From NCBI GenBank assembly GCA_049602155.1, contig JBMYRH010000009.1, forward strand, positions 95,391 to 159,390: DNA of 64,000 bases, read 5' to 3'. Every line of letters starts with the position of its first letter. Within the stretch, counting starts at the first letter, position 1. The DNA is from Myxococcota bacterium (GTDB lineage Bacteria; Myxococcota_A; UBA9042; PHBI01; JBMYRH01). The notes beneath the pieces are model-generated. The model searched no databases and was not told the DNA's origin. It was given only the letters and a program-made list of their open reading frames with translations. A program made the position numbers and the translations under genes. Shown one piece after another: positions 4,315 through 37,538 of the stretch.

Positions 4315-5124
4315 ATGGCCCGCACGATTGCCATCGCCAACCAGAAGGGAGGCGTCGGAAAAACCACGACCGCCGTGAACCTCGCGGCGTCTCTTGCGGT
4401 CGCCGAGCAGCGTGTGTTGCTCGTCGACCTGGACCCACAGGGCAACGCTACCTCCGCCTATGGCGTCGAGAAGGCCCAGCTCTCTGCGCACGCTTATCAC
4501 GTGCTTGTGGACGGCCTACCCGCCCACGATGCCATCGCTCAGACCGAGCTTGAGGGCTGCGATATTCTGCCTACCAACACGGACTTAGTGGGCGCCGAGC
4601 TTGAGCTCGTCACGGGTCACGGCCGCGAAACGCGCCTCCGCGATGCCTTGGCTCCCCTCGCTGATGGCTATGACTTGATCCTCCTCGACTGTCCGCCATC
4701 CTTGGGCCTCTTGACCCTCAATGGCCTAACGGCCGCCGATGGCGTCTTGATTCCGCTTCAATGCGAGTACTACGCCATGGAGGGCATGAGTCACTTGCTG
4801 CGCACCATCGATCTCGTCAAGGCGCGCCTCAACCCAGGCCTCTCCTTAGACGGCATCGTGCTGACCATGTACGACAAGCGAAATCGCCTCACGTTCCAGG
4901 TCGAGACCGAGGTCGTGAATCACTTTGGACCCCTCGTCTGGCCCACGCGCATCCCTCGGAATGTGCGGCTCAGCGAATCGCCCTCATTTGGAAAACCGGC
5001 GCTCCTCTATGACGTCGCAGCGCCCGGTACGGCAGCTTATCTCGCCCTCGCGGACGACCTTTTGGCGCGTCAGCCGAAGGCCCCCGTGTCGTCCTCATCA
5101 TCGCAGGAGGTCTTCGGACAATGA
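4315..5124 (+). CDS. parA: Chromosome partitioning ATPase ParA/Soj.
   Basis: 269 aa. Deviant Walker A motif NQKGGVGKTTTAVNL. DLDPQGNAT is typical of ParA/Soj. Confidence 0.95.
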   Translation: MARTIAIANQKGGVGKTTTAVNLAASLAVAEQRVLLVDLDPQGNATSAYGVEKAQLSAHAYHVLVDGLPAHDAIAQTELEGCDILPTNTDLVGAELELVTGHGRETRLRDALAPLADGYDLILLDCPPSLGLLTLNGLTAADGVLIPLQCEYYAMEGMSHLLRTIDLVKARLNPGLSLDGIVLTMYDKRNRLTFQVETEVVNHFGPLVWPTRIPRNVRLSESPSFGKPALLYDVAAPGTAAYLALADDLLARQPKAPVSSSSSQEVFGQ

Positions 5125-6008
5125 GCACTGGAAGACAGACACTAGGGAAGGGCCTTGGTGCCCTCCTGCCGGCGCCCGAGTACGCGGCACATCGTGATGA
5201 CTATTTCCTCTGCCCTGTGGCCGAGGTCCACCCAGATCCGGGCCAACCTCGCCGTCACTTTGACGACGCGGCGCTCGATGAACTCGTCGTCAGCGTGCGT
5301 GAGAAGGGGATCTTACAGCCCCTCGTCGTGCGGACCCGCCCGGACGGCCCAGGCTATCTGCTGATCGCAGGTGAGCGTCGCCTGCGCGCTGCTCAGCGCC
5401 TGCGCCTCCGCGACGTGCCCGTCCTGGTCAAAGAGGTGGCCTCTGATGAGGCCTTTGAGCTGGCCCTGATCGAGAACATTCAGCGTGAGGACCTCAACCC
5501 TATCGAGGAGGCCCTCGCCTTTGAGAGGCTCCTCAGCGCGGAGGGCATGACTCAAGAGACCCTCGCCCTGCGGATCGGGAAGAGCCGGTCCTCTATCGCG
5601 AACGCCTTGCGCCTCTTGAAGCTCTCAGAGGTCCTCCAGGCTCACGTCGAGCAGGGGCTCTTGAGCTCCGGTCATGCGCGCGCCTTGCTCTCCCTCGATG
5701 ACCTTGCCCGTCGCGATGAGCTGGGCGCGAAGGTGATCGAGGAGAAGCTCTCAGTTCGGGAGACAGAGCGGCTCGCCAAGCTCTGGAATCGCGGCGAGCC
5801 TCGCGTCAGAGGTCCGCGTAAACCGGGTCCCCTTGCACCTTATCTCGAGGGCCTCGCGGACGAGATCGGGACCGCGCTGGACCTGCAGGCGACCGTCAAG
5901 TTGCGTGGACGTCAGGGCAAGCTCACCCTTCAATTTCACGGCGTCGAGCAGCTCCGAACTTTGCGGGATTTCTTGGTGCAATCTGCGGAGGCTGATGCCT
6001 CCCGATAG
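5121..6008 (+). CDS. parB: Chromosome partitioning protein ParB/Spo0J.
   Basis: 295 aa. GERRLRAAQ (ParB box II), LIENIQREDLNP and an HTH region. Its ATG overlaps the parA stop. Confidence 0.95.
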   Translation: MSTGRQTLGKGLGALLPAPEYAAHRDDYFLCPVAEVHPDPGQPRRHFDDAALDELVVSVREKGILQPLVVRTRPDGPGYLLIAGERRLRAAQRLRLRDVPVLVKEVASDEAFELALIENIQREDLNPIEEALAFERLLSAEGMTQETLALRIGKSRSSIANALRLLKLSEVLQAHVEQGLLSSGHARALLSLDDLARRDELGAKVIEEKLSVRETERLAKLWNRGEPRVRGPRKPGPLAPYLEGLADEIGTALDLQATVKLRGRQGKLTLQFHGVEQLRTLRDFLVQSAEADASR

Positions 6009-6021
6009 GCCTCGCCCCGTC

Positions 6022-8274
<2,253 letters not shown>

Positions 8275-8334: not shown

Positions 8335-9855
8335 ATGGGACCACCATCTGTGTTCAAGAGGCAAGGGCGTCTTCTACGCGCGCGAGCGCGTTCGCTCACG
8401 CGCGCGGCCGTTGCCCTCTTGCTCACGGTCGCCACCTGCTGGGTCAGCGCATATTTTTGGACACATACAACATCCGGCCAGGGGCAGATCATCTCGGTCG
8501 CCGAGCGCCGTTTCGATCACGCGCTGGTTCGCCTCGACGGCCTGGGTTGGGGGCCGTCCCCTCTGCGCTGGTGGACGCGGGGCCTCGTGATAGCTGAGCA
8601 CCCTGAGCAGCCCGTGCTGAGCGCTGGTGTCGCTGTGATCGAGCTGGATCTCGCGACAGCGTGGTCCGAGACCGTCAGCGTGACGCGTATGACGGCGAAG
8701 GATGTGGGGGTTCACCTGACTTGGGACGCCTCAGGGCGCTCAAACTTGGCGCGACTGCGGCGCCCAGCGGATCCCACCGAGCCGGCGCGTGATCCCCGCC
8801 CCTGGGTGTTTCAGGTCGTCGATCTGTCCGGTGGCGTCGTCAGCCTGACGTGGCCAACGTGGGGGCTTCACTTTGATGCCGTGGACTGCGCGGGCTCGAT
8901 TCGACGCGCGCCGCCCGAGGGCCTTGTGATCGCGGCGGACCTAGAGGGCGCTGAGGCCTCTTTGAGGGTCGGTGATCGGGTTCAACGCTTCGATGCCCAC
9001 GCTATCGAGGGGTTTGAGTGGCGCTCGCGAGCCCTAGAGGCCAAGCGCGTGGTGGTGAGTTCCACGGCAGGGGCAGAGCTCATGCTCGCTGGTGAACTGG
9101 GGTTCGATGGTGGGACCTCGGCGGACCTCCGTGGTCACGCGACGCTCCCAGTGGATGCGGGAGATGAACTGCTCACCCAGTGGTTCCCTCAGGGAGGCGG
9201 AGCGCGAGCCATCACTGTGTCACGCACCGCTGGGGCACCATGGTCCTTCGGCGTCACGGAGGCTGTGATCCCCACCCTGAGCATGGGTGATTGGCAGGCC
9301 TCCGGGCTCGCCGCCTCTTTTGATGCAGAGGTTGGGCGTGGTGGTGTGGTGCCTTCTCTGGGGTTAAGGACGGAGGGCGCGACGGCGCAGTCGATTGCTT
9401 ATGGGACGAGGTGGCGCGTAGACGGCGTACGGGCTGGCTCGGTGAACTTGAGCCTTGGGGTGGCCACTGAGGCCAAGATCTCCGCCCTGAGAGCGTCTGA
9501 TTTTCAGCTCTCAGGGGAGCGCGTGACCTCTCCCGTCTTTGAGGGAGGGCTCGTCGCCAATATGGGGGGCGGCGCTCTGAACGCCTCTCTGACGACCGCG
9601 ATGGGGACGGTGACGGTCTCAGGGCCGATCGAGACGAGCCTCTTGCGGCGTCGGGTCGGTGCGCAGCTCTCTTGGCGCTTTGCGGATGTCCAGGGCGGCT
9701 TAGCAGGCTTGCTTCGTCGGGCACTGCCCGGTGGGGAGACGCCCGATGATTTCGAGGTCCTCGACGGTCGCGCAACGTCAAGATTCGGCGTCGCTGCTGC
9801 GGGACCTGTGACGTGGTCTTGGACTGACGTGGAGTGGACGGGAGGTGAGCCATGA
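8335..9855 (+). CDS. Hypothetical membrane-anchored protein (506 aa), first gene of the TamB/Omp85 cluster.
   Basis: The N-terminal TM is RAAVALLLTVATCWVSAYFW. Start 8335 is chosen to avoid overlapping the divergent maeB start. Its stop overlaps the downstream start (ATGATG). No recognisable catalytic motifs. Confidence 0.5.
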   Translation: MGPPSVFKRQGRLLRARARSLTRAAVALLLTVATCWVSAYFWTHTTSGQGQIISVAERRFDHALVRLDGLGWGPSPLRWWTRGLVIAEHPEQPVLSAGVAVIELDLATAWSETVSVTRMTAKDVGVHLTWDASGRSNLARLRRPADPTEPARDPRPWVFQVVDLSGGVVSLTWPTWGLHFDAVDCAGSIRRAPPEGLVIAADLEGAEASLRVGDRVQRFDAHAIEGFEWRSRALEAKRVVVSSTAGAELMLAGELGFDGGTSADLRGHATLPVDAGDELLTQWFPQGGGARAITVSRTAGAPWSFGVTEAVIPTLSMGDWQASGLAASFDAEVGRGGVVPSLGLRTEGATAQSIAYGTRWRVDGVRAGSVNLSLGVATEAKISALRASDFQLSGERVTSPVFEGGLVANMGGGALNASLTTAMGTVTVSGPIETSLLRRRVGAQLSWRFADVQGGLAGLLRRALPGGETPDDFEVLDGRATSRFGVAAAGPVTWSWTDVEWTGGEP

Positions 9856-12800
9856 TGGCTGCGCTCTTCCGCGCGCTGCGCCGTACGCTCTACCTTGGCT
9901 TCAAGCTGGTGATGACGGGCCTCTTCATGGCCTACCTGCTCGTCGCGCGGAGCTTCCTCTACATCTTGACCCTTTACGTCGCTGTGTACTTCGTCAGCGG
10001 CCACTCGGCGACGAAGCATTTCGTGCAGCAGGCGGTGTCGTCTGAGGTGCCAGGCTTCATCACGGTGGGCACCATGCAGTGGGGGCCGATGCCTTGGAGC
10101 ATCACCTTGGCTGGATCACGGGTTCATGGAGAGCACACCCAGCAAGTGATCCACGTGGAGATGTTTGAGGCTGAGGTCGACTGGGCTTCGACGGCTGCGG
10201 CTGTGACACGGATGATGGTGGTGCCTGACGCGCCGATCCCGATCTTGATGCGGCACGTGCACATCGTGAAGCCGACGATCCACATGACGTCGAGTGAGGA
10301 GGGGTTGGACTTTACCCGAGCGTTCCACATCCCCACTGGTGGTCCATCGAACCCGCCGAAGAAGACGATCCGGATAGATCACGCCACGATTGAGGGGGCG
10401 CGTATACGCATCGACTTCCCCGAGATACGCATGGACGCGGAGGGCATTGACCTCCACCTCGCACATTTCCTGCTCGAGAACATCGATGACGTGAACTTCC
10501 TCGTGTCCCGGGCGCATATCGACACCTTCGATTTTCATATGCGACCACACTTTAGGCCCTTCCCGAGCCTCGATCGGCTCACGATGCCGGTCCGCAACCT
10601 CGCGATCACACGCTTTCAGTTCGTCTTGAACCGCTTTGAGGCCTTGAAGGTCGAAGGTGAACTCGACGGCGGCAAGATGCTGGCGTCGATCGCGATGGAC
10701 TTCGTGCGAGGTCAAACGCCGCTTTGGAAGACTCGAATGAACCTCGACCTCCCAGAGACCTCCACCATCTTACCGGATCTCTTCGGTGGGCATGTGCGGG
10801 GGGCGTTAACGGCCGACATCGAGGGGCAAGGCTCGATGGACGAGCTTAACCTCGCGATCTCGGGGCGCTCACCGACGATGAAGCTCCTGGGCCATGACGT
10901 CGCGGACTTGGCGATGGAGCTCACGATCGCGCCAGAGGTCACGCCTGAAGGTCGGATCAACCACCCGTTTGTCCTCCACTCACTGTCAGGCGACACCTTG
11001 GGGGGGCGTGTCGAGGCGGGTCCGTTTCGGTATGTCATGCGTTGGGCCGAGCCCGCTGCACCGAATGCCCAAGGGCTCACGATGCCGGGCCATGGGACTC
11101 GCCACGCCTTTGGTGGCACGCTCAAGCTGGACGGCGTCGACCCCTGGGAGTTCCTGCAGCCCCTCGATCTTGGGCTAGATCTTGAGTCGCTACCGCTCCT
11201 GAGTGGATCAGCGGTGGGGACGCTCCACGTCAACGGTTATATCGATGAGGAGACTCACCGCTTTGTACTCGACGGTGCGACCGATCGGTTGGGCTACAGT
11301 TGGAATGGGGCATCGAATTGGCCTCTGAACAAGGTCTTCGAATTGAGCGGTGGCCTCGGCCTCTCGCTCGGTGAGGTTGGCTCCACAGACCCGGTCGACG
11401 GTGTCTTTGCGCCTCACCGCCTCCTCACGTTTGAAGAGATGCGCCTGACGAGTAGCGGAGACGCGGTGGTCCTAGACGCTGAGCTGGACCTCACCCGTGG
11501 TCGCGTCGACGCCTACGCAGATGTTCGGGTCCGTGAGCTTCGACGCTTCTTGGCGCCCTTTGGGGTCGACACTGTTGCAGGGCGAGCTCACCTCGCTCGA
11601 CTGCGGATCACCGAGACGTTTACAAACCCGACAGTCGAGACCTTCGCGACGATCAATGGTGCGGAGCTCTCGGGGAACCCGATGGGGACGCTGACCAGCC
11701 ATGTCGCGCTGCATGACGGCCTTCTCAAGATCAAGGGCATGAAGACAGAGGCGCCTTGGGGGAAAGCCTCTGCGAATGGACATATGCAGCTCTGGAATGG
11801 CGCGATCACATCGCCAGACCCGAACCTGCCCTTCGTCGTCAACGACGCCCGTGTCGACAACTTACAGCTCAAGAACCTGCTCCCACAGATCGGCCTCAGC
11901 GCCCGTGTCTCCGTCAACGCGGATCGGATCTCCGGCAAGGCGGTGAGGCTCATCGATACGGTCGAGGGATCGGGCACTGTTCGGGCGACTGACCTGAAGA
12001 TGGGGCCGGACTCAGCCAAGCTGTTCACCGCAGAGCTTATCGCCAATTCACGGATGCTGAAGGCGAAGGAGGTGGAGATCACCCTCGCCTCTGGAGACCT
12101 GATCCAGGGCAACGTCATGATGACAAAGGGAGGCCGACAGTTCTCAGCTCAGCTCAAGACTGACGAGCTCCCGCTCACCGCGATCAAGTGGTTTGGTCAG
12201 CAAGGTGTGAACCTCGGTGGTCGTGTGAGCGCTGATCTGAGCTTGGATGGGACGCTCGAGAAGCCGATCTTAATCGGCACGTTGGCGACCTATGACTTCT
12301 CCCTCGACCCGATCTTTATGGGGGATGGCAGCTTCAGTATTACGACCGCTCAAGATGGGCGTATCGAGCTGTCGGCCTTGGAGAACTTCCCCGGCATGTC
12401 GCTGCTCGAGGGCTCCCATGTGGTCGTCAATCGAGGGGTCCCGACGTACGCTAACTTCCGGGTCAAAGCTGAGGACGCCAAGGTCTACGAGGTCCTTCCG
12501 TTCCTCGCCATTGACGACACGGAGCTGACAGCGACGGCCATGGTGGAGATCGATCTTTGGCCCGGTCGTGACGGAGACACCTGGCAGGTCTTGGTGGACG
12601 CGATGCCCGGTGACGTCGGCTTGTCGCTCTTTGATGGAGAGCTGGAGTACGACAACCTGTCTGAGCTGTTCATGGTGATGACGCCGCGCGAGCTGCTCAT
12701 TGAGCCAGTCGCGCTAGGGGTGGATCTCGACGATGCCATTTTGGTCTGTGGGACCTTCCAAGAGGAGGCCCTCTGGGACCTTCAGGTCGGAGGTCGCCTT

Positions 12801-14255
12801 AACATGGGGCTCCTGCGCTTCATGAAGGACATGTTCAGTGTCATGGAGGGGCACATCATCGTGGCCCCGGATCGGTCGACAGCCCTCGCGCTCGGAGACG
12901 ACGCTTGTCTGCCTCGCGGTGGCGACGTCACGGAGGTCGACCCTAGCGTCTTACGGCTCCAAGGAGAGCTCTTGAGCCCTAAGCTGAGCGGTAAGCTTGA
13001 GATGTCCAAGATCCTCCTCACACCTCGAAACTTTGGCAGGGATGTCGAGCTCGCCGATGGCTCGACGGTCATCTTACGGCCGGGCACAGAGCCCGGCATG
13101 CAGAGGGTCTCCCTAGGCAAGGACAAGGACTCTCGTGTGAAGGGCACCTTGGAGGACGGTCAGTTCGAGGTCTGGGGTGAGCTGATGTTGAAGCACCTCT
13201 TCTTAGACTCGGCGGAGATTAAGGCTGTCGGGACCGAGATCTTCTATGCCTCTCCAGGTGAGTACAACATCACGATTAACCCGGAGCTGAGCTTGGCGGT
13301 CACCGACTTCATGGATGACGAGCGCCGTAAGCTCTTGCTCTCCGGCAAGACACAGATCACCGAGGGGATGTACTACAGGAGCTTTGACTCTCTCGGCCAA
13401 GCGATCGGAAATATCGCGGGGAGTGGCGGTGGCAAGACTCATGAGTTGCCCCTCGTCGAGCGCGTCCCCTGGCTCAAGTCCTTGGTGATGGACCTCAACG
13501 TCTTCGGCAGCACCTTCGAGATCACAAGCCCTTACACGGGGGGCTCGGCGGCGGTTGATTCGCGCTTTGATCTCCGGGTGACCGGGACCCTCGAGGAGAT
13601 GTCGATCTATGACCGGCTTCAGCTCATCCCTGGTGGCATCGTCAGCTACGACCTGATCGACCGAGAGTTCGAAGTGGTCCAAGGGACTGTGGACTTCCGA
13701 GGTGACCTTGGGGCACCCGAGATCGACCTCGAATTGGCGACCGACGTCGCCTATGAGATCACGACCGGGGTCGAAGATCAGGTGGAGGAGCGCGAGGTGA
13801 CTGTCAGCGTGCGCATCTCTGGGATCCCCCCGAACCTCGACATCGAATTCTGGTCCAAGGACAGCACGGGCTTGGACCAAGCTGACCTGCAGTCACTCAT
13901 CTTGACCGGTAGCCCGCGCACAGAATCGGCCTCGCTTCAGGATTCGTTAGGTATCAGCTTTGATTTTAGTCAGTTCCTCTCATCGGTGCTCAAGGCGCCT
14001 TTCTTTGAGGCGTTCAAGGCGCGCGTCGGTCCGCAAGGTACAGTCACGACGCAGATCGTGACGGAGTTCGGGCGCGCCGTGCAGCTTCACACCAAGGTCA
14101 CCCAGGCGGCGACCGAGACGCGAGTCCGCGCCGGCTTCCAGTTTCAGCTCTCGGACAACTTGTCTCTGGAGGGCACCCTGCAGCGGACAGATAGAGCCCA
14201 GAACCCGACTCAGACCTATGAAGCTCGCTTCAAGTACAGGATCCCAATCGACTGA
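9852..14255 (+). CDS. TamB/AsmA-like giant inner-membrane-anchored translocation-and-assembly protein (1467 aa).
   Basis: N-terminal signal-anchor (LYLGFKLVMTGLFMAYLLVARSFLYILTLYVAVYF). The rest is long, beta-rich and low in Cys. It is translationally coupled (TGATG) to the downstream Omp85 gene. Assignment is by architecture and neighbourhood, not by a named motif. Confidence 0.55.
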   Translation: MMAALFRALRRTLYLGFKLVMTGLFMAYLLVARSFLYILTLYVAVYFVSGHSATKHFVQQAVSSEVPGFITVGTMQWGPMPWSITLAGSRVHGEHTQQVIHVEMFEAEVDWASTAAAVTRMMVVPDAPIPILMRHVHIVKPTIHMTSSEEGLDFTRAFHIPTGGPSNPPKKTIRIDHATIEGARIRIDFPEIRMDAEGIDLHLAHFLLENIDDVNFLVSRAHIDTFDFHMRPHFRPFPSLDRLTMPVRNLAITRFQFVLNRFEALKVEGELDGGKMLASIAMDFVRGQTPLWKTRMNLDLPETSTILPDLFGGHVRGALTADIEGQGSMDELNLAISGRSPTMKLLGHDVADLAMELTIAPEVTPEGRINHPFVLHSLSGDTLGGRVEAGPFRYVMRWAEPAAPNAQGLTMPGHGTRHAFGGTLKLDGVDPWEFLQPLDLGLDLESLPLLSGSAVGTLHVNGYIDEETHRFVLDGATDRLGYSWNGASNWPLNKVFELSGGLGLSLGEVGSTDPVDGVFAPHRLLTFEEMRLTSSGDAVVLDAELDLTRGRVDAYADVRVRELRRFLAPFGVDTVAGRAHLARLRITETFTNPTVETFATINGAELSGNPMGTLTSHVALHDGLLKIKGMKTEAPWGKASANGHMQLWNGAITSPDPNLPFVVNDARVDNLQLKNLLPQIGLSARVSVNADRISGKAVRLIDTVEGSGTVRATDLKMGPDSAKLFTAELIANSRMLKAKEVEITLASGDLIQGNVMMTKGGRQFSAQLKTDELPLTAIKWFGQQGVNLGGRVSADLSLDGTLEKPILIGTLATYDFSLDPIFMGDGSFSITTAQDGRIELSALENFPGMSLLEGSHVVVNRGVPTYANFRVKAEDAKVYEVLPFLAIDDTELTATAMVEIDLWPGRDGDTWQVLVDAMPGDVGLSLFDGELEYDNLSELFMVMTPRELLIEPVALGVDLDDAILVCGTFQEEALWDLQVGGRLNMGLLRFMKDMFSVMEGHIIVAPDRSTALALGDDACLPRGGDVTEVDPSVLRLQGELLSPKLSGKLEMSKILLTPRNFGRDVELADGSTVILRPGTEPGMQRVSLGKDKDSRVKGTLEDGQFEVWGELMLKHLFLDSAEIKAVGTEIFYASPGEYNITINPELSLAVTDFMDDERRKLLLSGKTQITEGMYYRSFDSLGQAIGNIAGSGGGKTHELPLVERVPWLKSLVMDLNVFGSTFEITSPYTGGSAAVDSRFDLRVTGTLEEMSIYDRLQLIPGGIVSYDLIDREFEVVQGTVDFRGDLGAPEIDLELATDVAYEITTGVEDQVEEREVTVSVRISGIPPNLDIEFWSKDSTGLDQADLQSLILTGSPRTESASLQDSLGISFDFSQFLSSVLKAPFFEAFKARVGPQGTVTTQIVTEFGRAVQLHTKVTQAATETRVRAGFQFQLSDNLSLEGTLQRTDRAQNPTQTYEARFKYRIPID

Positions 14256-17200
14256 TGTCTTCGGCCCTCCCCATACTCATCGCGCTGGCCGCGGTCGCCC
14301 AGAGTCCGGCGCCGTCTACGGCCGCTCCGTCGCTGGATCCACAGCCGGTTGAGGAGGCGGCGACCGAGGTGAAGGAGTTGCCTTCGCTGGACGAGGTCGC
14401 GCCGACGCTAGAGGTCACACAGCCCGTCGAGGCTGCGCCGCCTCACCCCTGTGTTGGCACATCGCTCTACTCGGTGCGCTTGGCGGGCTGTCGTGGACCT
14501 GTCTGCGACTCGGGAGAGATGCGCGCGGGCTTTGTGACCATCACCGACATCGAGCCGGGCCAGACCCTCTCTGCGAATGATGTGTCAGTGGCTATCGCGC
14601 GCCTTGAGGCGACGGGTTTCTTCCGGAGCGTGGCCCTAAAGTGCACGCGAAAGGGAGATCAACTGGCCCTCGTTGTGACGGTTGCGCCGCATCGCTTCGT
14701 CCGCAAAGTCTCGATCCGAGGCAACCAATTCTTCCGTGAGAGCGAGCTGTCTAAGCGCGTGACATTGCACAGCGGCGACGCCTTGAACGTCGAGCCGGGG
14801 CAAGAGTCAGACAGCGAGACCTTGAAGCGGCTCGTGGAGAGCTTGAAGGCCCTCTATTACAAGGAGGGACTTGAGGATGTGCGCTTTGACGTGAAGGTCG
14901 CGCTGATCGATGAGACCACGGTCGACCTCTCTGTCGAAATCACGGAGGGTGAGCGAGACCGCGTACGCTCCTTGGACATCGCCCATCAGCCGGCGGTCGT
15001 CACGCAGCGTGGCGCGATGAAGTGCCCCAGCGTGGAGCCTCGCAAGCTGAGCGCGCTCGTCGGCGTGAACGTTGGAGAGGTGGTCACGGAGCGTCAGCTC
15101 CGCGAGATGAAGCGGCGCCTGAAGAACTTCTTCCAATCGATTGGATTTGAGCGGCCTGACATCGAGGCTGATATCGTCGGCGATCCCTTGGTGCTCCGCG
15201 TCCGTGTCAAGACGAACCAATGCTGGCTGGTTCGAGTGTGGGAGCGTGAAGCCACTTCCTTGAGCGCCTCCCGTGCGGAGCCCGCGTTTCGCTTTCGTGA
15301 CCCGGTGGATACCGACGAGAGCTTCACGGACCCCGCACCGTATGAGCGCAGTCGACTTGAGCCATGGCGCGGCCTCTTGCCCTTCTATGAGTCCGGCGTC
15401 TTTGAGCGTGAAGAGGCGCTGCGTGGCGTGGAAGTGATTCGCGCGATTTTGGCCAGCCAGGGATTCCTCTTCGCCGATGTACGGCTTGAGCATCGGGTGT
15501 TGCAGACGCGCGATAAACGTCGCAATTCGGTGGGTGCATCGCCTGTGATGGGCACGATCGATTACTACCTCACCCGGAACTATGAGCGCCGACTTCAGGG
15601 GCTGACCTTTGAAGGACTGGAGAGCTTTGAAGAGGAGGTCTTGCTGAGCGTGATGGATACCCAGATGTATGATTTCTTGGGTGACCCTGGCGCGATTCAG
15701 ATCCAGAAGGTCCTCTACGACCTCACGAAGGTGAAGCGCTATTATCAAGAGCGTGGCTTCTATGCGTTCCGTTATGCGCTGACTGGAGAGCCTGAGCAGC
15801 GGAGCCCTCGGCGTGTGCGGCGCACGGAGGGCGACTCTGTCGTGTGGGAGTACCGCTTCCGAGATCGTGGCTTCAGGATCCGAAAGCGTAAGGGGCAGAT
15901 GGTCCTCTATCTAGAGATCCCGCTCATCGAGGGGCCGCAGACAAAGGCGACCAAGATCAACATCTTCGGGGCTAAGAGCTTGCCACCGATTTTGGCCAAG
16001 CTGTTGCTTGAGATTGAGACAGGAGGGGCCTACGGAAAGGTCATGCTTGAGTCGGGCCTCAAGCGTATCAAGCTCTGGTACTCCCAACGCGGCTACCATC
16101 AGATGAAGGTCTTCCCCACCTGCAAGGCCTATGATCCGGAGCCTGAGAACGGCGATTGCGACCCCTTCAACGTGCGCTCAGGCAAAGTGGAGATGGTCTA
16201 TCGCATCGATGAAGGCCCTCAAAGCAGCGTCGGTGAGATCTTCTGGCGCGGCAATTTCCGCACGGATCCAGAGGTCTTATTGCGCGACCTGCCACAGCCT
16301 GGTGATCCGTATCGTGCAGAGGATATCGCGACGGCTGCTCGGAAGCTCCGTAACCTTGGCGTCTTCAATTCGGTCAAGATCACCCCCATCGGCATCGATG
16401 AGACCCCGGCGCGAGATGAGATCGCGCTCCTCGTCACGGTCGAAGAGGGTAGGACGCGCTTCATCGATCTCGCGGTTGGTTTCCGCACCATCGATCGGGA
16501 CAGTGACGCGGGCACAAAGGCGCCCGCGTGGTTGGGCTCGATCATCGGTCAAGCGACAGCAGCCTCTGACCGATCCACCAACGGGTTGGCGCGGGGCAGG
16601 GCGCTCGGCTTGCCCGATGTCTTGCTCAAGGTGGAGGCGGAGTACCTTGAGTACAACTTCCTGGGCTTGGGCTGGCAGTTCACTTTGCCCGTGCAGTACG
16701 GGTTCTCGACGAGCGATCCGCTGCGCCTTGGTTCGTTGACCCCGACCATCCGTATCCCGCGGCCAGGGGGCACGGACTTGGAGACGGAGATTAAGCTCCT
16801 CGCGGAGATCGACCGGGTCAATGACCAGATCGATCGCACCGAATTCGGCCTCTATTCGTCACTCAATTGGCCGCTCATGGATCAGATGACCCTGGGGTTC
16901 GCGCTCGACTTTGGGATGATCTGCTTTAAGCAGCCGGGAGACAGCAACCCGATCTGTGATCTGGATGAGTACTCTCCTCAGTTCCGACCCTCAATCCGTT
17001 GGCGCTGGGACACTCAGAACAACCCCCTTAACCCCACCAAGGGCTTCACGCTCTCGGGCGAGTTTAAGTACATCTTCGGGCGCAGCAGTGACGAACTTAT
17101 CGGCCTTGAGACCGCCAATGATTTGGGCACCGAGTACGCCAATTTCTTGAAGTGGGAGACCAGCGCCGAGGTCGTGATAGACACGCGCATCGGACCGATC

Positions 17201-17761
17201 ATCGCGGCCTTTGTACGCTACGGTGGCAGCCATCAGATCGGCGGAGATGGTACGTCACTGCTCCCCGCCAACGAGATCTTCACGCTGGGGGGATCCAACG
17301 GTGTGCGAGGGTATACCGACCACGCCATCGGTCGCTATGACGCCGCTGGGCTCCTCGACCGTGGCTGGCTCGATGCGAACGGAAACCGCGTCGGCGCCAT
17401 CTACGATTATCGTCAAGATGGTGGCGGCAACGTGGTCCTCAACGGAAGCATGGAGGTTCGAATCCCGCTCGTGAAGCGAATTGGGCTCTGGGCGGCGACC
17501 TTTGTGGACGCAGGGGCGATCGCCCGAACGCACTCCGATATTCACCTTGAGAGCTTCCGTTTCTCCGCGGGCGCCGGCATTCGCTACCTCATCGGCAATC
17601 AGATCCCCGTGCGGCTCGACTGGGGGTTTGCGTTGGGCGACCCGCGCTGCACGGCTTGGTCCAGGACGGCGGACCTGTCCTCGGACACGCTCGCGGCGGA
17701 CGCCTGCGCCAAGGAAGAGGAGGGCAACCGCATTCACTTTGACCTGCTCTATCCGTTCTAG
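14255..17761 (+). CDS. Omp85-family outer-membrane protein (BamA/TamA-like) with extended N-terminal POTRA region.
   Basis: 1168 aa with a signal peptide (MSSALPILIALAAVAQSPA) and a Pro-rich linker. Repeated POTRA-like segments are followed by a C-terminal beta-barrel ending ...RIHFDLLYPF (terminal aromatic beta-signal). Confidence 0.75.
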   Translation: MSSALPILIALAAVAQSPAPSTAAPSLDPQPVEEAATEVKELPSLDEVAPTLEVTQPVEAAPPHPCVGTSLYSVRLAGCRGPVCDSGEMRAGFVTITDIEPGQTLSANDVSVAIARLEATGFFRSVALKCTRKGDQLALVVTVAPHRFVRKVSIRGNQFFRESELSKRVTLHSGDALNVEPGQESDSETLKRLVESLKALYYKEGLEDVRFDVKVALIDETTVDLSVEITEGERDRVRSLDIAHQPAVVTQRGAMKCPSVEPRKLSALVGVNVGEVVTERQLREMKRRLKNFFQSIGFERPDIEADIVGDPLVLRVRVKTNQCWLVRVWEREATSLSASRAEPAFRFRDPVDTDESFTDPAPYERSRLEPWRGLLPFYESGVFEREEALRGVEVIRAILASQGFLFADVRLEHRVLQTRDKRRNSVGASPVMGTIDYYLTRNYERRLQGLTFEGLESFEEEVLLSVMDTQMYDFLGDPGAIQIQKVLYDLTKVKRYYQERGFYAFRYALTGEPEQRSPRRVRRTEGDSVVWEYRFRDRGFRIRKRKGQMVLYLEIPLIEGPQTKATKINIFGAKSLPPILAKLLLEIETGGAYGKVMLESGLKRIKLWYSQRGYHQMKVFPTCKAYDPEPENGDCDPFNVRSGKVEMVYRIDEGPQSSVGEIFWRGNFRTDPEVLLRDLPQPGDPYRAEDIATAARKLRNLGVFNSVKITPIGIDETPARDEIALLVTVEEGRTRFIDLAVGFRTIDRDSDAGTKAPAWLGSIIGQATAASDRSTNGLARGRALGLPDVLLKVEAEYLEYNFLGLGWQFTLPVQYGFSTSDPLRLGSLTPTIRIPRPGGTDLETEIKLLAEIDRVNDQIDRTEFGLYSSLNWPLMDQMTLGFALDFGMICFKQPGDSNPICDLDEYSPQFRPSIRWRWDTQNNPLNPTKGFTLSGEFKYIFGRSSDELIGLETANDLGTEYANFLKWETSAEVVIDTRIGPIIAAFVRYGGSHQIGGDGTSLLPANEIFTLGGSNGVRGYTDHAIGRYDAAGLLDRGWLDANGNRVGAIYDYRQDGGGNVVLNGSMEVRIPLVKRIGLWAATFVDAGAIARTHSDIHLESFRFSAGAGIRYLIGNQIPVRLDWGFALGDPRCTAWSRTADLSSDTLAADACAKEEEGNRIHFDLLYPF

Positions 17762-18663
17762 AGGGGCGGGTCGCGCACCTCTTGCCGCGCGCGGAGGGCG
17801 TCGACGTAGTAGTGGGTGTCTTGACCCGGTTGGAGCTCCCCTGTTGAGATCTGAGCCTCAAGCCAAGCGATGAACTCGCCGACCTGAGGGCCAGGCTTGA
17901 TGTTCATGTCGCTGCAGAGCGCGCTCCCGAGCCGCGGAGGGAGGGTCGGTGCGGCGTTCGCTTTCGCATTCATCCGGGCGATCCGCTCGGTGAGCTCGGC
18001 CAGCTGGGCGCGAATCCTGCTCGCGCGCCTCGGCCGCTTGGTTGTGTAATCCGCGCTGCTAAATCGAAGCATGTCCTCAAGGTGCTCGCCTGCATCTCGG
18101 ATCAACCGTCGGATGGCGCGATCGCTCCAGCTCCCTTCGTACGCGTTCACGCGCGCGTGGTGCTCTACGACGAAGGCGATGCGCTCACGGCGCGCATCGG
18201 GCATATGAAGTCGTGCAGCGATGCCGTGGGTGAGCCAGGCCCCGAGCTTCTCGTGACCATGAAAGCTCACTTGGCCATGCCCAAAGATCGCGCGCGTCGC
18301 CACCTTGCCGATGTCATGGAGCAGTGCGACCCACCGCAGATCTGCGTCCACTGGGGTGCGCTCTAAGACCTCGAGCGTATGTGACCAGAGGTCTTTGTGA
18401 TGCACCGGCGAACTCAAGTGAAAGTTCACCAAGGCGTGCACCTCGGGGAGCCACACTGCCAACGCCCCTGTGGACTCCAACCACTGAAGTGCCGCCCCCG
18501 CGTTCGGACCCGTGAGCACCGTGTCTAGGCACGTCAGGGCACCAGGGGACTGCACATCGATGAGCCTGCCGATGTCACGGCGAATGCCTGCCTCAGTCGG
18601 AGGGGCAGTCGTCCCATTGGCGATGGCTGGGGCGAGCGTCAGGATGTCGGCGGGCACCGTCAT
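17758..18663 (-). CDS. HD-domain phosphohydrolase family protein.
   Basis: 301 aa. H..HTLEV....ALLHDIGK (HD motif) and VVEHHARV. Its stop overlaps the Omp85 stop region (convergent). Confidence 0.65.
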   Translation of the reverse strand: MTVPADILTLAPAIANGTTAPPTEAGIRRDIGRLIDVQSPGALTCLDTVLTGPNAGAALQWLESTGALAVWLPEVHALVNFHLSSPVHHKDLWSHTLEVLERTPVDADLRWVALLHDIGKVATRAIFGHGQVSFHGHEKLGAWLTHGIAARLHMPDARRERIAFVVEHHARVNAYEGSWSDRAIRRLIRDAGEHLEDMLRFSSADYTTKRPRRASRIRAQLAELTERIARMNAKANAAPTLPPRLGSALCSDMNIKPGPQVGEFIAWLEAQISTGELQPGQDTHYYVDALRARQEVRDPPL

Positions 18664-18687
18664 GGGCCGTGCTTACGCGAACGTTCG

Positions 18688-18996
18688 TCAGTTGGCCAGG
18701 ATCGGTTGCATGTCGAGGTACGCGAAGAGGGTGTCGAAGTAGGCCCGCACCAGCGTCTCTTGGACCTCAAGGGGCGAGCCAGCGACCCATTCACGTTGCT
18801 CTCTCGCGTCCCCAGAGGTCTCCACAGCATCGACGACCGTTCGAAGCCTTGCGGCAGCATCGGGTGACAGGGATGGACCATCTGCGCGACGCATCGTGAA
18901 GCGCACCAGCTCTGGCTCGAAGAGGGGGTGATGACCACTCAACCCTTGGCAAAGCAAGGTGCCCCAAGCGTCGGATTCTGTACGCGGAGATAACAT
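18688..18996 (-). CDS. Hypothetical small protein (102 aa).
   Basis: Non-low-complexity ORF downstream of... upstream of the HD gene on the same strand. No motif support. Confidence 0.3.
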   Translation of the reverse strand: MLSPRTESDAWGTLLCQGLSGHHPLFEPELVRFTMRRADGPSLSPDAAARLRTVVDAVETSGDAREQREWVAGSPLEVQETLVRAYFDTLFAYLDMQPILAN

Positions 18997-19093
18997 GCCA
19001 TATATGGCACCATAGGTGTCGCGTCCTGTCCAGTGGGGTTTCGATACGCGTCAACCTTGAATCCAGGGTGGAGGATCGACTAGCTTCGTGGCC

Positions 19094-20392
19094 ATGAATG
19101 CACGCCCCCTATTGTTCGCCTTGTCCCTCTTTTTGCTCCCGTCTGCAGGCGCCTGCGTGGACGTCGGGACTGACCCTGGCCCCGAGCCCACGGTGCCGGA
19201 CATCGAGGAGCCTACGGTGGAGGGCTGCGAAGAGGCGGAGCAGCAGACGTATCGATGCCGCGACAACGAAGAAGAGGTCCAGATCTGTAAAGAGGCCGCT
19301 GTGGGTGAGTTCGTCTGGGATACGATCGACTTCTGCGAGGAGGATCAGGGCTGCTTTGCGAGCCCCTTGAACGCCTACCCCGCCTGCATGTCGAAGTTCG
19401 ACTGCTATTCTGTGGTCTACGAGCTGATCTCATGTGACAGCGCCCCTCAGCTGGGCGCTTATGATCGCATTGAGTGCAGAAACGGTGTGGAGCGCCTGGC
19501 CCTCGATGATAGCTATCAGGACCTCTACACCTGCTATTACGACTTCAACTGCCACGAGACGAAAAACCCGACCGACTGCGTCATGGAGCGGTGCAGTGAC
19601 TTGCTCCTCGCGTGCGTGGAGGGTGAGGCAGGCCCCCCAAGAGCCGGTAGTGAGGCATCGAGCCCAGAGCCCAGCATCCCAGATGAGGGTGGAGCCGACG
19701 TGTCAGAGGAAACGGAGGATCCCGGGGTGGGAGCCGATGCGTCGAATGATGAAAGTGTCGATGCCGTCTCAGCCGAGAACCCTCCCGGAGCACTTGAGGT
19801 GCCCGAGGGGTGCGAGGTGGACTTCATCACCTGCGTCTCGGGTTGCGTGCCGACCTGCCTCGCAGACTGTGACTCCAGTACCGAGGGCCCGGTGACGGAC
19901 TACGCGCACGGCCTTTGTCAGCAAGAGTGTCCCTCGAGCTGTGTCGAGACGTGCGCAGCGGAAGAAGATCATATGGGGCCGATGGAGCTCTTGGGCATGG
20001 GGAACTGTGCGACCCAATGCGCCAACGTCTCGGGCATGTCGATTCAAGCATGTTTGCTGCAGCAATGCCCTCAGGCTGTCGCGCCTTGCTTCCAGGGCAC
20101 CTTTGGGAGCTCAGAGGTGTGCTCGGAGACCGTTGAGTGTCTGTTCCAGTCAGTCTCTGCTGAGCCTGTCACCTCGACCCTTGAGTGCGCCGCAGAGGCT
20201 ACCCAAGACACCCTGGATCAGGCGGTCGCAGTGCTCGCCTGTGTGTCTGAAGCGACCCGGGCAGGCGAGCCATGCGCTTGGGATGCCTCCTCTCTCCCGT
20301 GGGCCGATCATGTGGCCGCGGAGGCCGCGTGCTTCGCCGAGGCTTGCGGTCCTGAGCTCTACAGTTGTCCCAGCGACCTGTTCGGTAACTGA
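19094..20392 (+). CDS. Acidic Cys-rich lipoprotein, hypothetical (432 aa).
   Basis: Signal peptide plus lipobox (MNARPLLFALSLFLLPSAGAC). About 40 Cys spaced as CxxxC/CC pairs. There is a central acidic low-complexity linker (PEPSIPDEGGADVSEETEDPGVGADASNDES). ATG 19094 is chosen over the upstream GTG 19088. Confidence 0.7.
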   Translation: MNARPLLFALSLFLLPSAGACVDVGTDPGPEPTVPDIEEPTVEGCEEAEQQTYRCRDNEEEVQICKEAAVGEFVWDTIDFCEEDQGCFASPLNAYPACMSKFDCYSVVYELISCDSAPQLGAYDRIECRNGVERLALDDSYQDLYTCYYDFNCHETKNPTDCVMERCSDLLLACVEGEAGPPRAGSEASSPEPSIPDEGGADVSEETEDPGVGADASNDESVDAVSAENPPGALEVPEGCEVDFITCVSGCVPTCLADCDSSTEGPVTDYAHGLCQQECPSSCVETCAAEEDHMGPMELLGMGNCATQCANVSGMSIQACLLQQCPQAVAPCFQGTFGSSEVCSETVECLFQSVSAEPVTSTLECAAEATQDTLDQAVAVLACVSEATRAGEPCAWDASSLPWADHVAAEAACFAEACGPELYSCPSDLFGN

Positions 20393-20408
20393 GCTTCGAG
20401 AACAGGCC

Positions 20409-23400
20409 TCAGGAGATCTTCTGACCCGTGAGGCCAAGGATGGCCTCATTGTCCGGCGTGCTGACCCACGTCTTCCGCTTCTCAGCGTCCTCGATCGTGC
20501 CGGCGATACTGCGGAGCGCGTCGACGGCTTGCAGCATCAACGCGTCTGCTGCCTGCTTCCGCCCCACGCCTCGCCTCGCCCGACTCAGGACGAAGAGCAG
20601 CTGATGGGTAAAGCGCGTCCAACCCGTCTTCCGTTGACCTAACTGAAGGGCGTCCTCTGCGAGCTGCAGTCCTTCGACAGGCTTCCCTGCCTTGATGAGC
20701 GCTTGAGAGCCGTAGGCAGAGGCGCGCGCAGCGCGACCAAACGCCTGGCGTCTCGTCGCTTGAATGACCAAAGAGTGCGCCTCTTTGGCCATCTTCGCCG
20801 CGACGGCCGCGGGGGCCTTCTGGAGGCTGAGGTTCATCAGCCCGAGGCGCGCGTCGGCCATCAGCATCCAATCAGGTGTGTCGCGCACGATCGCCGTGAC
20901 CCTCTGGAGTCGGTCAGCCGCCTCACCACGACGGCGCTCAAGCTGAAGGGCCGCGGCTTCGGCCAAGAGGGCCTGGCCCATGGCCACGGCGTCCGCGTCG
21001 CGCTCGCCGAGCTGGGCAGCTTGCTCCGCATGATCCCGGGCGGAGGCCGCCCAGCCGAAGTCGACATGGAGACGCGCGAGGTCAAGCTCGACACGAGAGG
21101 AGAGCCCGCGCACGTGGTCGGCTGGCAGCTCGATAGAGACCTCGATGAGCGCCTCTAGGGCGGCCTCTGGTCTCCCTGCCTGGACGAGCAAGCGCGCAGC
21201 TAAGATATCTGCGGTGAGTTCATGGTTGCGCTCTCCAGCTTGCTCTGCTGCGGTGCGGTACTCATCGACAGCTTGCTGAGCATCACGAGTCCACTCAAGC
21301 TCCGTTAAGATCTCCGCCAAGGCGCCCATCAGCCGCATCCATACTGCAGGCCGAGGACGTTCACCCTTGCGCGCGTCCTGGATCGCCTGAAGCGCGCCGG
21401 CCGTGTCACCTGTAGCATAAGCGCTCATGACGCGCGCCCAGCTCCGCAGACCGAGGGCATCCACACCGGGGCGACCAGGCTCAAGGGCGACGCGCGCCTC
21501 GGCCTGTCGCGCCATTCGTGTCCAATCCTTTTGCTCAAAGGAGGAGACCACCTGGGTCTCCAGAGCGAAGGCGAGGGTGGGCATATGGGCGGCCTCGGTG
21601 CCCACCTCGACGAGCGCTGCGCTGGCCTTGTCGAAGGCGTCGAGATCTCCCTCCTGCATCGCATGACGGACACGGGCCTTATAGAGCATCGCCCGCCATC
21701 GCCACGCTTCATCAGCCTCCTCGGGTCCAAGTTGCCGCTCGAGCAGCTCCTCCGCTTGATCGAGGAGCGCCGCGGAATGCGCTGCAGCGTCTGCGCCTCC
21801 GGACTCTGACGCGGCGACGACGAGGTGGGGGGCGGCGAGCACAGGCCGGTCGGAGAGGATGAGGTGATCGGCGACGAGCTTACGTTGGCCGTTGAAGCGC
21901 TCCTCAGCGTGGATAGCGCGGGCCAGCCGGCGGTGGAGCTGTTGACGCTCCCCGCTGGGCAGCGACTCATAGATGCCCTGCCGCCAGCGATCGTCACTGA
22001 CCAGCAGCATGCCGTCGCCTTGTGACGCTAAGACGCCATCGGTCAGCAGCGAAGGTACGTACTCGGCGTCGTCGTCGAAGTAGCGCTCAATGATGGTCTC
22101 AGGGAGCGCCTGCTGGAGGATCGCGAGGAGGGCGTCTAGACGCCCAATCTCGTCGCCGCTTGGTGCAGCCAGGGTCGCGTCGACACCCGCTTCCAAGACA
22201 TAGCCGCCGCCCACGCGCTTCAATGTGCCGCGTCGGAAGAGGTCGTGCATGACGGCGATGAGGCCCGCGGGGGCCCCCTTAGCGGACTCGTGGAGGCGCT
22301 TGAGCTGCTCGGGGCCGATGACCCCGCGACCTACGGTTCGCTCCATCCACAGCGCGGTTTGCTCTAAGCTGATGGGTTGAAGGGGGACGACCGTCGCCTC
22401 TTCCATCTTGATGAATTGTTCGAAGGCGTCTGGCGCCGTCGGCTCCTCGTCTGGGTTCACGCTGGCCATGACGCGCAGCTTCTCGTTTCTCGCTGCAGTG
22501 AGGGCAGCCTGTAACACCGCGATACTTGAGCGGTCGGCGCGCTGCAGGTCCTCGATCACCAAGAGCGTCGGGCCATGAAGCCGCGTCAGCATGGTCGCCG
22601 CACCACTGCAGCCTCGAAGCAGCTCCTCATTCTCGTCAGGGTTCTCTGCTTGTCGCAGCCTGCTGAAGATGTCGATGGCGGGCTTGAGGCATTCCAGTGG
22701 ACCTTCTGTGCCCGTGAACCGGAGGCGAATGACGCGCGATCCACCGACCGCGCCTCGGTCTGCGAGCTCATGGAGCAACCAAGAGGCGTCGTATCCGCCG
22801 GGCGCGCGCGCGACGAGCAGCCGGGGTCGGTCGGTCTCGATCGCCATGCCTGGCTTGAGCCAGGAGAGGCAGCTGTCGCCGGCCCCCAAGAAGTCATCAC
22901 GGCCTGGAAATGGGCTCGACTGCAGGTGCTTACCGAAGGCGCTCTCGGTCTCGATCAGCGGCGTCTGCTCTGTGGCCTCGCAAAGACGCACGAGCACCTC
23001 GTGGGCGTGCGATGGTCGGTTGTCTGGGTCGGGTGACAGCAGCTCATAGATGAGCGCCTCGACGCCTGGGGGGCAGTCCGGGTGGGAGATCTTCGGCGGC
23101 TGGTTCTTGAGGCGCGCTTTGAGGAGCTCGTTCTCGTCGCTCCCTGACCAGGGGCGCTTCCGCTCCACCAGCTCGTAGAGGACCAAACCGAACGCGTAGA
23201 GGTCAGAGCGCTGATCGAAGGGGTCGCCGGCGAGCATCTCGGGGGCACAGTACTCGGGCGTCCCGATGAAGAACCCCTCTGGGGCCTTACCCAATCGGGT
23301 AGCGACCCCGAGGTCGATCAGACGGCAGGCCCGGTCTCCCGTGTCTTGCATGTCGACGAGGACGTTGCCTGGCTTCAGATCTCGATGCAGCCACCCCATG

Positions 23401-30085: not shown

Positions 30086-30298
30086 GAGGGCCGACCTCCG
30101 TGATTTGGGCCGCGTCACAGTATCCGAAGGTTGTGCCCGGGACAACAAGCGCCTGACACCCAATGGTCACTTGTCGTGATTCTGTGCCCGATATCATCAT
30201 AAGTGCTTGTTTACGCTGGTGAATAAAGTTTGGCAATGTGGGTTCGGATCGCCGTACTTCGGTGCCTCAGCAGAGTGATAAAAGAGGCACGACCGCCG

Positions 30299-33983: not shown

Positions 33984-37538
<3,555 letters not shown>

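Follow-up and report, generated by a model that had tools for sequence, protein, structure and literature searches.

A seven-POTRA Omp85, a TamB homologue and a short AsmA-like protein encoded by a probable outer membrane biogenesis operon of a Myxococcota bacterium

TamB is far more widespread than TamA, and where tamA is absent, tamB and bamA often form one operon (Heinz et al. 2015, PMC4494059). The order is TamB-BamA in the Spirochaetes and BamA-TamB in the Acidobacteria, the BamAs linked to TamB often have six or seven POTRA domains, and some deltaproteobacterial TamBs and Omp85s cluster with those of early-branching phyla (PMC4494059). In Bdellovibrio, bd2494 (DUF490) and bd2495, which encodes an Omp85 with seven POTRA domains, are co-transcribed; attempts to delete bd2495 failed, from which the authors inferred that it is essential, and the synteny is kept in Myxococcus xanthus (MXAN_5764-5763) and Bacteriovorax marinus, each time with a gene for a tetratricopeptide repeat (TPR) protein in first place (Milner et al. 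2014, PMC3983030). The M. xanthus protein (Mxan5763) was also used as a query, together with proteins from Fusobacterium and Thermus, in a search for Omp85s with 4, 6 or 7 POTRA domains (Arnold et al. 2010, PMC2878562), and a review describes M. xanthus BamA as having 7 POTRA domains (PMC6604945). Myxobacteria have three BamA-subfamily groups that differ in POTRA number, one inherited vertically, one derived from a delta-specific duplication and one acquired horizontally (Heinz and Lithgow 2014, PMC4104836). Here we describe a cluster of three genes, designated genes 1, 2 and 3, in a 64-kb stretch of contig JBMYRH010000009.1 from a Myxococcota bacterium (assembly GCA_049602155.1); this whole stretch of 64,000 nucleotides is referred to as the window.

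The three genes lie on the plus strand of the window with overlapping ends and encode proteins of 506, 1467 and 1168 residues (window translations; Table 1). They probably constitute a single translationally coupled operon, given the shared strand, the ATGA and TGATG overlaps and the absence of a terminator-like site from either junction in a promoter/terminator scan, and the products probably form an envelope-spanning TamB-Omp85 module for outer membrane biogenesis. The junction of genes 1 and 2 reads GAGCCATGATGGCT and that of genes 2 and 3 reads GACTGATGTCT; the ATGA overlap of genes 1 and 2 is a signature of translational coupling. An earlier note on this DNA, made from the sequence alone, had described the same three chained open reading frames, and their lengths, positions and overlaps were confirmed. 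The frame of gene 1 is open back to a GTG at 8239. Because a start at this codon would overlap the divergent malic-enzyme gene and because full-length homologues have 501-506 residues, translation probably begins at the ATG at 8335. The GC content of third codon positions (GC3) is 0.76-0.77 for genes 1-3 in a window with 63% GC, and homologues encoded in other contigs have tblastn identities of 23-27% (gene 1), 28-40% (gene 2) and 36-50% (gene 3); therefore, these are not chance open reading frames. For gene 1, a chance or shadow frame was ruled out by its conservation in six loci and by a confident structural model. The promoter/terminator scan returned 0 promoter-like sites, and terminator-like sites were rarer than in shuffled sequences.

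On the basis of its sequence, gene 3 encodes an Omp85 of the BamA subfamily and not a TamA. The Pfam POTRA model scored 139.3 bits and Omp85 (PF01103) scored 97.5 bits (cut-off 24; residues 801-1129), in agreement with the earlier identification of the last gene as an Omp85 with POTRA domains. Among the curated NCBI models, BamA (TIGR03303) was the best by far with 223.6 bits, compared with 48.1 bits for TamA (NF047950; cut-off 625) and 49.3 bits for TamL (cut-off 400), and the best PDB sequence matches were all to BamA (E 9e-11), with TamA at E 1e-4. The protein also has the features of the subfamily, namely multiple POTRA domains, of which members have three to seven and canonically five, and the Omp85 barrel, a 16-strand domain, with the L6 (V/I)RG(Y/F) motif, and residues R1018, G1019 and F1168 are invariant in the family alignment. 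It is 100% identical to an NCBI protein annotated as 'MAG: POTRA domain-containing protein [Myxococcota bacterium]', where MAG denotes a metagenome-assembled genome.

The presence of seven POTRA domains, including the extra repeats suspected in the earlier note, is supported by secondary structure and by profile comparison. An AlphaFold2 (AF2) model of gene 3, used for secondary structure only, has seven β-α-α-β-β units ahead of the barrel. When a 25-sequence family alignment was cut into seven units and these were compared profile against profile, unit 6 matched each of the other six at 95-98.5% probability, with the N-terminal linker and the barrel as controls at 0.5% or less. The extra length is due to the number of POTRA domains, seven instead of three to five, to insertions in two of them (units 4 and 5) and to a slightly bigger barrel. 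A long Pro-rich N terminus had also been reported, and a Pro-rich linker is indeed present, but it comprises only about 48 residues (17-64, including 10 Pro, 8 Ala and 7 Glu), is unconserved and predicted to be disordered, and accounts for little of the extra size. The comparison with a canonical TamA of about 580 residues, on which the impression of an oversized protein had been based, used the wrong yardstick for a member of the BamA subfamily (223.6 versus 48 bits).

Three other identities were considered for gene 3 and rejected. TamA is ruled out by the seven rather than three POTRA domains, the 48.1-bit score and the PDB match at E 1e-4 as compared with about 1e-10 for BamA. TamL is ruled out by a signal peptide that has no lipobox, the first Cys being residue 66, and by the 49.3-bit score of the TamL hidden Markov model (HMM). 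TpsB transporters carry two POTRA domains, and this identity is excluded by the seven found here together with the BamA-type scores. As a separate observation, the Cys pairs 79/84 and 623/635 are invariant or nearly so in the 25-sequence alignment, at 23-47% identity, which suggests candidate conserved periplasmic disulfides in POTRA1 and POTRA6.

Gene 2, on the basis of its sequence, encodes a divergent member of the TamB family that is not an equivalog of E. coli TamB. Pfam TamB/DUF490 (PF04357) matched the C-terminal region at 54.2 bits (gathering score 22.4), and the N terminus has a weak match to the AsmA-clan model DUF748, so that the earlier description of the 1467-residue protein as TamB/AsmA-like stands. 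The putative signal-anchor, read from the sequence rather than with a transmembrane predictor, is preceded by basic residues and conserved in homologues. The C-terminal motif YEAR[FC][KR]YRIP[IL][DE], which overlaps the end of DUF490 and reaches residue 1467 (nucleotide 14252), is conserved across eight related loci. A PDB sequence search with gene 2 gave no matches.

Gene 1, for which no function could be assigned in the earlier note, encodes a short membrane-anchored paralogue of the N-terminal groove of gene 2, i.e. an AsmA-like protein. This assignment is made because of family matches to DUF748, the fold of the AF2 model, a structural match to LPD-3 and homology to the gene 2 family in hhalign. 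All eight members of the gene 1 family match DUF748 (best E 3.3e-9), over only the first ~150 of the 1037 profile positions. The AF2 model, built from eight sequences (pLDDT, predicted local distance difference test, 81), comprises a long N-terminal helix followed by ~30 antiparallel strands, and in a Foldseek search of the PDB it gave one significant match, to the bridge-like lipid-transfer protein LPD-3/BLTP1 (9cap_A, E 1.6e-5, probability 0.98). The gene 1 and gene 2 families align in hhalign at 98.8% and E 4.7e-17 over 318 columns, collinear with the first ~350 residues of gene 2; the alignment begins at the anchor helix and includes the 'YFW' and 'WGPxP' motifs common to both families. 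The homology is visible at the profile level only, BLASTP of gene 1 against gene 2 giving a non-significant E of 0.21, and a PDB sequence search with gene 1 gave no matches. The gene 1 anchor has an Arg/Lys-rich N terminus before it and the conserved 'YFW' and 'WGPxP' motifs after it, and the C terminus of the protein is conserved and rich in Trp. Gene 1 thus shows the AsmA-like arrangement of a single N-terminal transmembrane anchor followed by an elongated β-groove, as well as homology to a true family member, the TamB of gene 2. The ~440-residue groove is probably too short to span the periplasm by itself.

In a scan of a genome collection, seven loci (L001-L007) were found, all from Myxococcota or 'Deltaproteobacteria' MAGs, and in 7/7 a TamB homologue of 1450-1640 residues is encoded directly upstream of an Omp85 of ~1110-1210 residues. 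The more distant loci L010, L012 (a Myxococcota MAG) and L013 (a Bradymonadales MAG) have the two genes in this order too, their codons overlapping or abutting, and lack gene 1, so that the TamB homologues directly upstream of an Omp85 gene range from 1385 to 1640 residues among these ten loci, and the adjacency seen in the window is general to them. The synteny across the phylum that the earlier note had proposed to look for is present; in total, TamB followed by a long Omp85 is counted in eleven related loci from MAGs or metagenomes. Two further loci from another lineage, L008 (10001-19327) and L009 (2255-11647), have a different arrangement, with an Omp85 (1046 or 1092 residues), a ~260-residue SurA-N-like periplasmic protein, TamB and a BON-domain protein; a relationship between the ~260-residue gene and gene 1 was ruled out (hhalign 0.2%). 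An exhaustive HMMER search gave about 60 cluster representatives of 1000-1250 residues collinear with gene 3. In a rough neighbour-joining tree of POTRA7 and the barrel, calculated without support values and indicative only, gene 3 is placed with TamB-linked Omp85s of Myxococcota and apart from canonical BamAs.

In L002, L003, L004 and L007, gene 1 was found by tblastn, and in L005 and L006 there are divergent open frames in which its anchor and motif recur; gene 1 is thus present upstream of tamB in the window and in six of the seven loci from the genome scan (L002-L007). In L001, a Tara Oceans MAG from a close relative, only 388 bp (5067-5455) lie between the malic-enzyme gene and tamB, and gene 1 is dispensable or lost in this genome. 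Gene 1 is confined to a sub-clade and is the only lineage-specific gene of the three. The proposal of a lineage-specific machine for outer membrane biogenesis or lipid transport was thus right as to the class of machine, but only gene 1 is specific to the lineage. The reversed gene order and the large Omp85, which had been regarded as unusual, are normal in Myxococcota and Bdellovibrionota, where proteins of ~1000-1170 residues with 7 POTRA domains have been published (PMC3983030, PMC4494059, PMC2878562). Both are already documented, and the cluster is mostly ordinary for the phylum; its sole new element is gene 1, a sub-clade-specific paralogue of the TamB N terminus that is translationally coupled to tamB.

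Two of the loci have additional features. L011 (560-6292) contains a single open reading frame of 1910 residues (P0202, GCA_043741015.1) with TamB, POTRA and Omp85 Pfam matches, which is a natural fusion of TamB and Omp85 unless a frameshift or an assembly artefact has joined two genes. In L012 (13445-23285), the TamB-Omp85 pair is followed immediately by a giant open reading frame (8470 residues as called) that extends past the end of the sequence covered and has no Pfam match.

The groove of E. coli TamB carries phospholipid; TamB also contacts the POTRA domains, and its last β-strand joins the first strand of TamA in a hybrid barrel (PMC12800296). In Borrelia, the DUF490 domain of TamB binds POTRA2 and POTRA3 of BamA (PMC11361582). 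AsmA-like proteins transport phospholipid redundantly and are essential as a group (PMC8593681, PMC8912898). By analogy with these proteins, we infer that gene 2 would be held in the inner membrane by its N-terminal helix and would extend a hydrophobic β-groove across the periplasm, and that its conserved DUF490 C terminus would dock on gene 3, at the POTRA arm and the seam of the barrel, as in E. coli TamAB and Borrelia TamB-BamA. Gene 3 would sit in the outer membrane as a seven-POTRA Omp85, and the two together may move phospholipid from the inner to the outer membrane and aid the insertion of β-barrel proteins. Gene 1 would most likely act at the inner membrane end, where it would either partner TamB, as an accessory or in the loading of lipid, or handle lipid as a second AsmA-like protein, shorter than TamB and co-expressed with it.

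Several results weigh against one part or another of this explanation. Gene 1 is absent from L001, L010, L012 and L013, in which the TamB-Omp85 pair is kept and the module works without it. Gene 1 alone scored 21.5 bits against DUF748, below the gathering score of 50, and it is below the Pfam threshold for every AsmA-clan family. Gene 2 has only a local match to the NCBIfam TamB equivalog NF047952, a proteobacterial model (25.2 bits; cut-off 825), and for this protein a long hydrophobic β-groove (β-taco) across the periplasm is predicted from family membership. Gene 3, with 223.6 bits, falls under the BamA equivalog cut-off of 297.15 and is a divergent member, and its AF2 model (pLDDT 57) is too poor for a fold search. 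With respect to the status of gene 3 as a paralogue, considered next, the failed deletion of Bd2495 (PMC3983030) and the naming of the M. xanthus 7-POTRA protein as 'BamA' in reviews (PMC6604945) count for a sole BamA.

We somewhat favour the view that gene 3 serves TamB as a dedicated partner, descended from BamA and functionally analogous to TamA, with another BamA encoded elsewhere in the genome. This view is preferred because of the three BamA groups in myxobacteria (PMC4104836), the deletion reported for MXAN_5763-5765, the non-canonical gene context and the placement of gene 3 in the neighbour-joining tree. According to a preprint that cites a thesis on this point, deletion of MXAN_5763-5765 had no effect on motility driven by type IV pili (T4P) (bioRxiv 10.1101/2024.03.11.584430); on that account the mutant would be viable. 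The context is non-canonical in that no skp-lpxD-fabZ block, the mark of a canonical bamA locus, lies beside genes 1-3, whereas skp/lpxD/fabZ are present at the canonical bamA locus L014.

The strongest alternative is that gene 3 is the single, essential housekeeping BamA in its myxobacterial 7-POTRA form, that the TamB of gene 2 docks on the BAM complex as in Borrelia and that the operon is simply tamB-bamA. This is a serious possibility, although we place it short of an even chance. It is consistent with the absence of a second Omp85 gene from the 64-kb window, with the best HMM and PDB matches of gene 3 all being to BamA and with the many phyla that have tamB and bamA together without tamA (PMC4494059), as well as with the failed attempts to delete Bd2495 (PMC3983030) and the 7 POTRA domains ascribed to M. 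xanthus BamA (PMC6604945, PMC2878562). Against it, gene 3 scores below the BamA equivalog cut-off, lies outside a skp-lpxD-fabZ neighbourhood and is placed apart from canonical BamAs in the rough tree; the several BamA-subfamily paralogues of myxobacteria (PMC4104836) and the reported deletion of MXAN_5763-5765 (bioRxiv 10.1101/2024.03.11.584430) also count against it.

A second alternative concerns gene 1, which may stand outside the machine as an independent short AsmA-like protein comparable with E. coli AsmA, YicH and YhjG, having arisen upstream of tamB by a local partial duplication. We consider this possible but unlikely. E. coli has several stand-alone short paralogues of this type (PMC8593681, PMC10345924), gene 1 has its own transmembrane anchor, and the TamB-Omp85 pair persists in the four loci that lack it; against independence stand the ATGA overlap with gene 2, the conserved Trp-rich C terminus and a position upstream of tamB that is retained in the window and in six related loci although identity is only 23-27%. 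The opposite proposal, that gene 1 is an obligate third subunit, is put forward tentatively and with little expectation; as a short copy of the TamB N-terminal groove with an anchor of its own, it would pair with TamB at the inner membrane and serve, for example, as a funnel for lipid loading or as a second lane. If this were true, the bridge of this sub-clade would be AsmA-like and heteromeric and would dock on a BamA paralogue with 7 POTRA domains, a composition that has no published description; heteromeric bridges do exist, and YdbH-YnbE is the nearest precedent (PMC11126948). Finally, it is improbable that the cluster is specialised in the secretion or export of particular surface proteins, in the manner of two-partner secretion or in connection with motility or predation, rather than being a general biogenesis module: Milner et al. 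connected the operon of Bdellovibrio with a polar TPR/MglA hub and suggested that predation proteins are exported (PMC3983030), and the first description of TAM was as a factor for autotransporter assembly (PMC4494059), but here the neighbours are malic enzyme and an HD protein, with no TPR gene, TpsA-like cargo or autotransporter adjacent, gene 3 is unlike TpsB in its seven POTRA domains and BamA-type scores, and T4P motility was reportedly unaffected by the M. xanthus deletion (bioRxiv 10.1101/2024.03.11.584430).

Table 1. Coordinates, in window numbering, of the three genes, their junctions and their domains
Feature	Position	Strand	Description and basis
Gene 1	8335..9855	+	506-residue short AsmA-like protein; N-terminal transmembrane anchor and ~440-residue all-β groove body
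Gene 1 membrane anchor (about residues 24-43)	8404..8463	+	Sequence, family alignment, helix in model
ATGA overlap	9852..9855	+	Gene 1 stop 9853-9855 over gene 2 ATG 9852-9854
Gene 2	9852..14255	+	1467-residue TamB family protein; predicted inner membrane anchor, β-rich, C-terminal DUF490
Gene 2 hydrophobic signal-anchor (about residues 13-48)	9888..9995	+	Sequence, hhalign with gene 1 anchor, family alignment
Gene 2 DUF490/TamB C-terminal domain (residues 1240-1460)	13569..14231	+	Pfam and family alignment
TGATG junction	14253..14257	+	Gene 2 stop 14253-14255, one base in common with gene 3 ATG 14255-14257
Gene 3	14255..17761	+	1168-residue Omp85 assigned to the BamA subfamily, seven POTRA domains
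Gene 3 signal peptide and Pro/Ala/Glu-rich linker (residues 1-65)	14255..14449	+	Sequence, alignment, model
Seven POTRA domains	14450..16456	+	Residues ~66-146, 147-233, 236-322, 323-442, 443-561, 562-654, 655-734
Omp85 β-barrel (residues 735-1168)	16457..17758	+	Pfam Omp85; L6 motif G-V-R-G-Y (1016-1020); C-terminal Phe

The genes that flank the cluster bear no relation to envelope biogenesis. Upstream are genes for a PP2C phosphatase, a TldD/PmbA peptidase, ParA and ParB and the divergent malic enzyme; downstream are a convergent HD-domain gene (17758-18663, minus strand), the stop codon of which overlaps that of gene 3, an unassigned open reading frame and a Ser/Thr kinase gene. The malic enzyme, HD and kinase genes are common to most of L001-L007. 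The HD gene, the kinase gene (20409-23771, minus strand) and a 278-residue open reading frame (block at window positions 17758-24604) have the same order in L005-L007; in L001, the HD and kinase genes match but the 278-residue frame does not, and the block has no functional tie to the operon. The rest of the 64-kb window contains no second Omp85 or AsmA-like gene. A TPR/HEAT-repeat protein of 1347 residues (46626-50669, minus strand) is encoded 29 kb from the operon, and no TPR gene is adjacent. Other large proteins are a subtilase of 1184 residues with FG-GAP repeats (33984-37538, minus strand) and a protein of 1252 residues for which all Pfam matches are sub-threshold (26405-30163, minus strand). 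The parA-parB pair (4315-6008) is located two genes upstream of the operon, and because parAB lies near the replication origin in many bacteria, the cluster may be origin-proximal; the cumulative GC skew climbs steadily across the window with no turning point.

These results add an uncultured marine or environmental clade of Myxococcota to the bacteria in which tamB is accompanied by the gene for a BamA-type Omp85 and not by tamA, and they lend support to the idea that the coupling of TamB with an Omp85 is both ancient and general. For annotation, gene 3 should not be named TamA, and gene 1 should be described as an AsmA-like paralogue of the TamB N terminus rather than as hypothetical. The docking of TamB on a long array of POTRA domains might be studied with the seven-POTRA arm and its insertions in units 4 and 5. 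If gene 1 proved to be a subunit, the locus would provide a simple natural system for examining the lipid loading of AsmA-like bridges at the inner membrane.

The closest described systems are bd2492-bd2494-bd2495 of Bdellovibrio and MXAN_5766-5763 of M. xanthus, which belong to the same broad lineage, the former Deltaproteobacteria, and in which, as in the window, a DUF490/TamB-like gene is followed directly by that for a 7-POTRA Omp85 (PMC3983030). From architecture, taxonomy and synteny, rather than from direct sequence comparison, genes 2 and 3 are probably orthologous to MXAN_5764-5763 and bd2494-bd2495. The first gene of those operons is for a cytoplasmic TPR protein (Bd2492/SgmX), and MXAN_5765 is an additional gene in M. 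xanthus, whereas the window has gene 1 instead and no adjacent TPR gene. The TamB-BamA pair of Borrelia burgdorferi resembles the window in having tamB followed by bamA, a BamA-type Omp85 and no TamA (PMC5582053, PMC11361582). It differs in that Borrelia has a single BamA, with five POTRA domains, and no third AsmA-like gene. The two Borrelia proteins are BB0794 (TamB) and BB0795 (BamA).

The E. coli TAM, which functions in phospholipid transport and in the insertion of outer membrane proteins, is likewise an envelope-spanning pair of an Omp85 and a TamB with an N-terminal anchor, a β-groove and DUF490 (PMC12800296, PMC4494059). It differs in that tamA precedes tamB and in that TamA, with 577 residues and three POTRA domains, belongs to a distinct Omp85 subfamily. 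In the second-copy BamA-TamB operons of Acidobacteria and Aquificae, an arrangement that has been proposed as the evolutionary origin of TAM, a BamA paralogue, in some cases with seven POTRA domains, is encoded with TamB as in the window (PMC4494059); there, the Omp85 gene comes before tamB, an order shared by L008 and L009 with their SurA-N-like and BON genes. With respect to gene 1, the single N-terminal transmembrane anchor and repeating β-groove are similar to those of E. coli AsmA, YicH and YhjG, which are also far shorter than TamB, and of eukaryotic bridge-like lipid-transfer proteins (PMC10345924, PMC8593681). Gene 1 differs from these proteins in that it is specifically paralogous to the N-terminal third of the TamB encoded next to it and is translationally coupled to that TamB. 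The short E. coli AsmA-like paralogues have roughly 570-690 residues, as compared with the 506 of gene 1.

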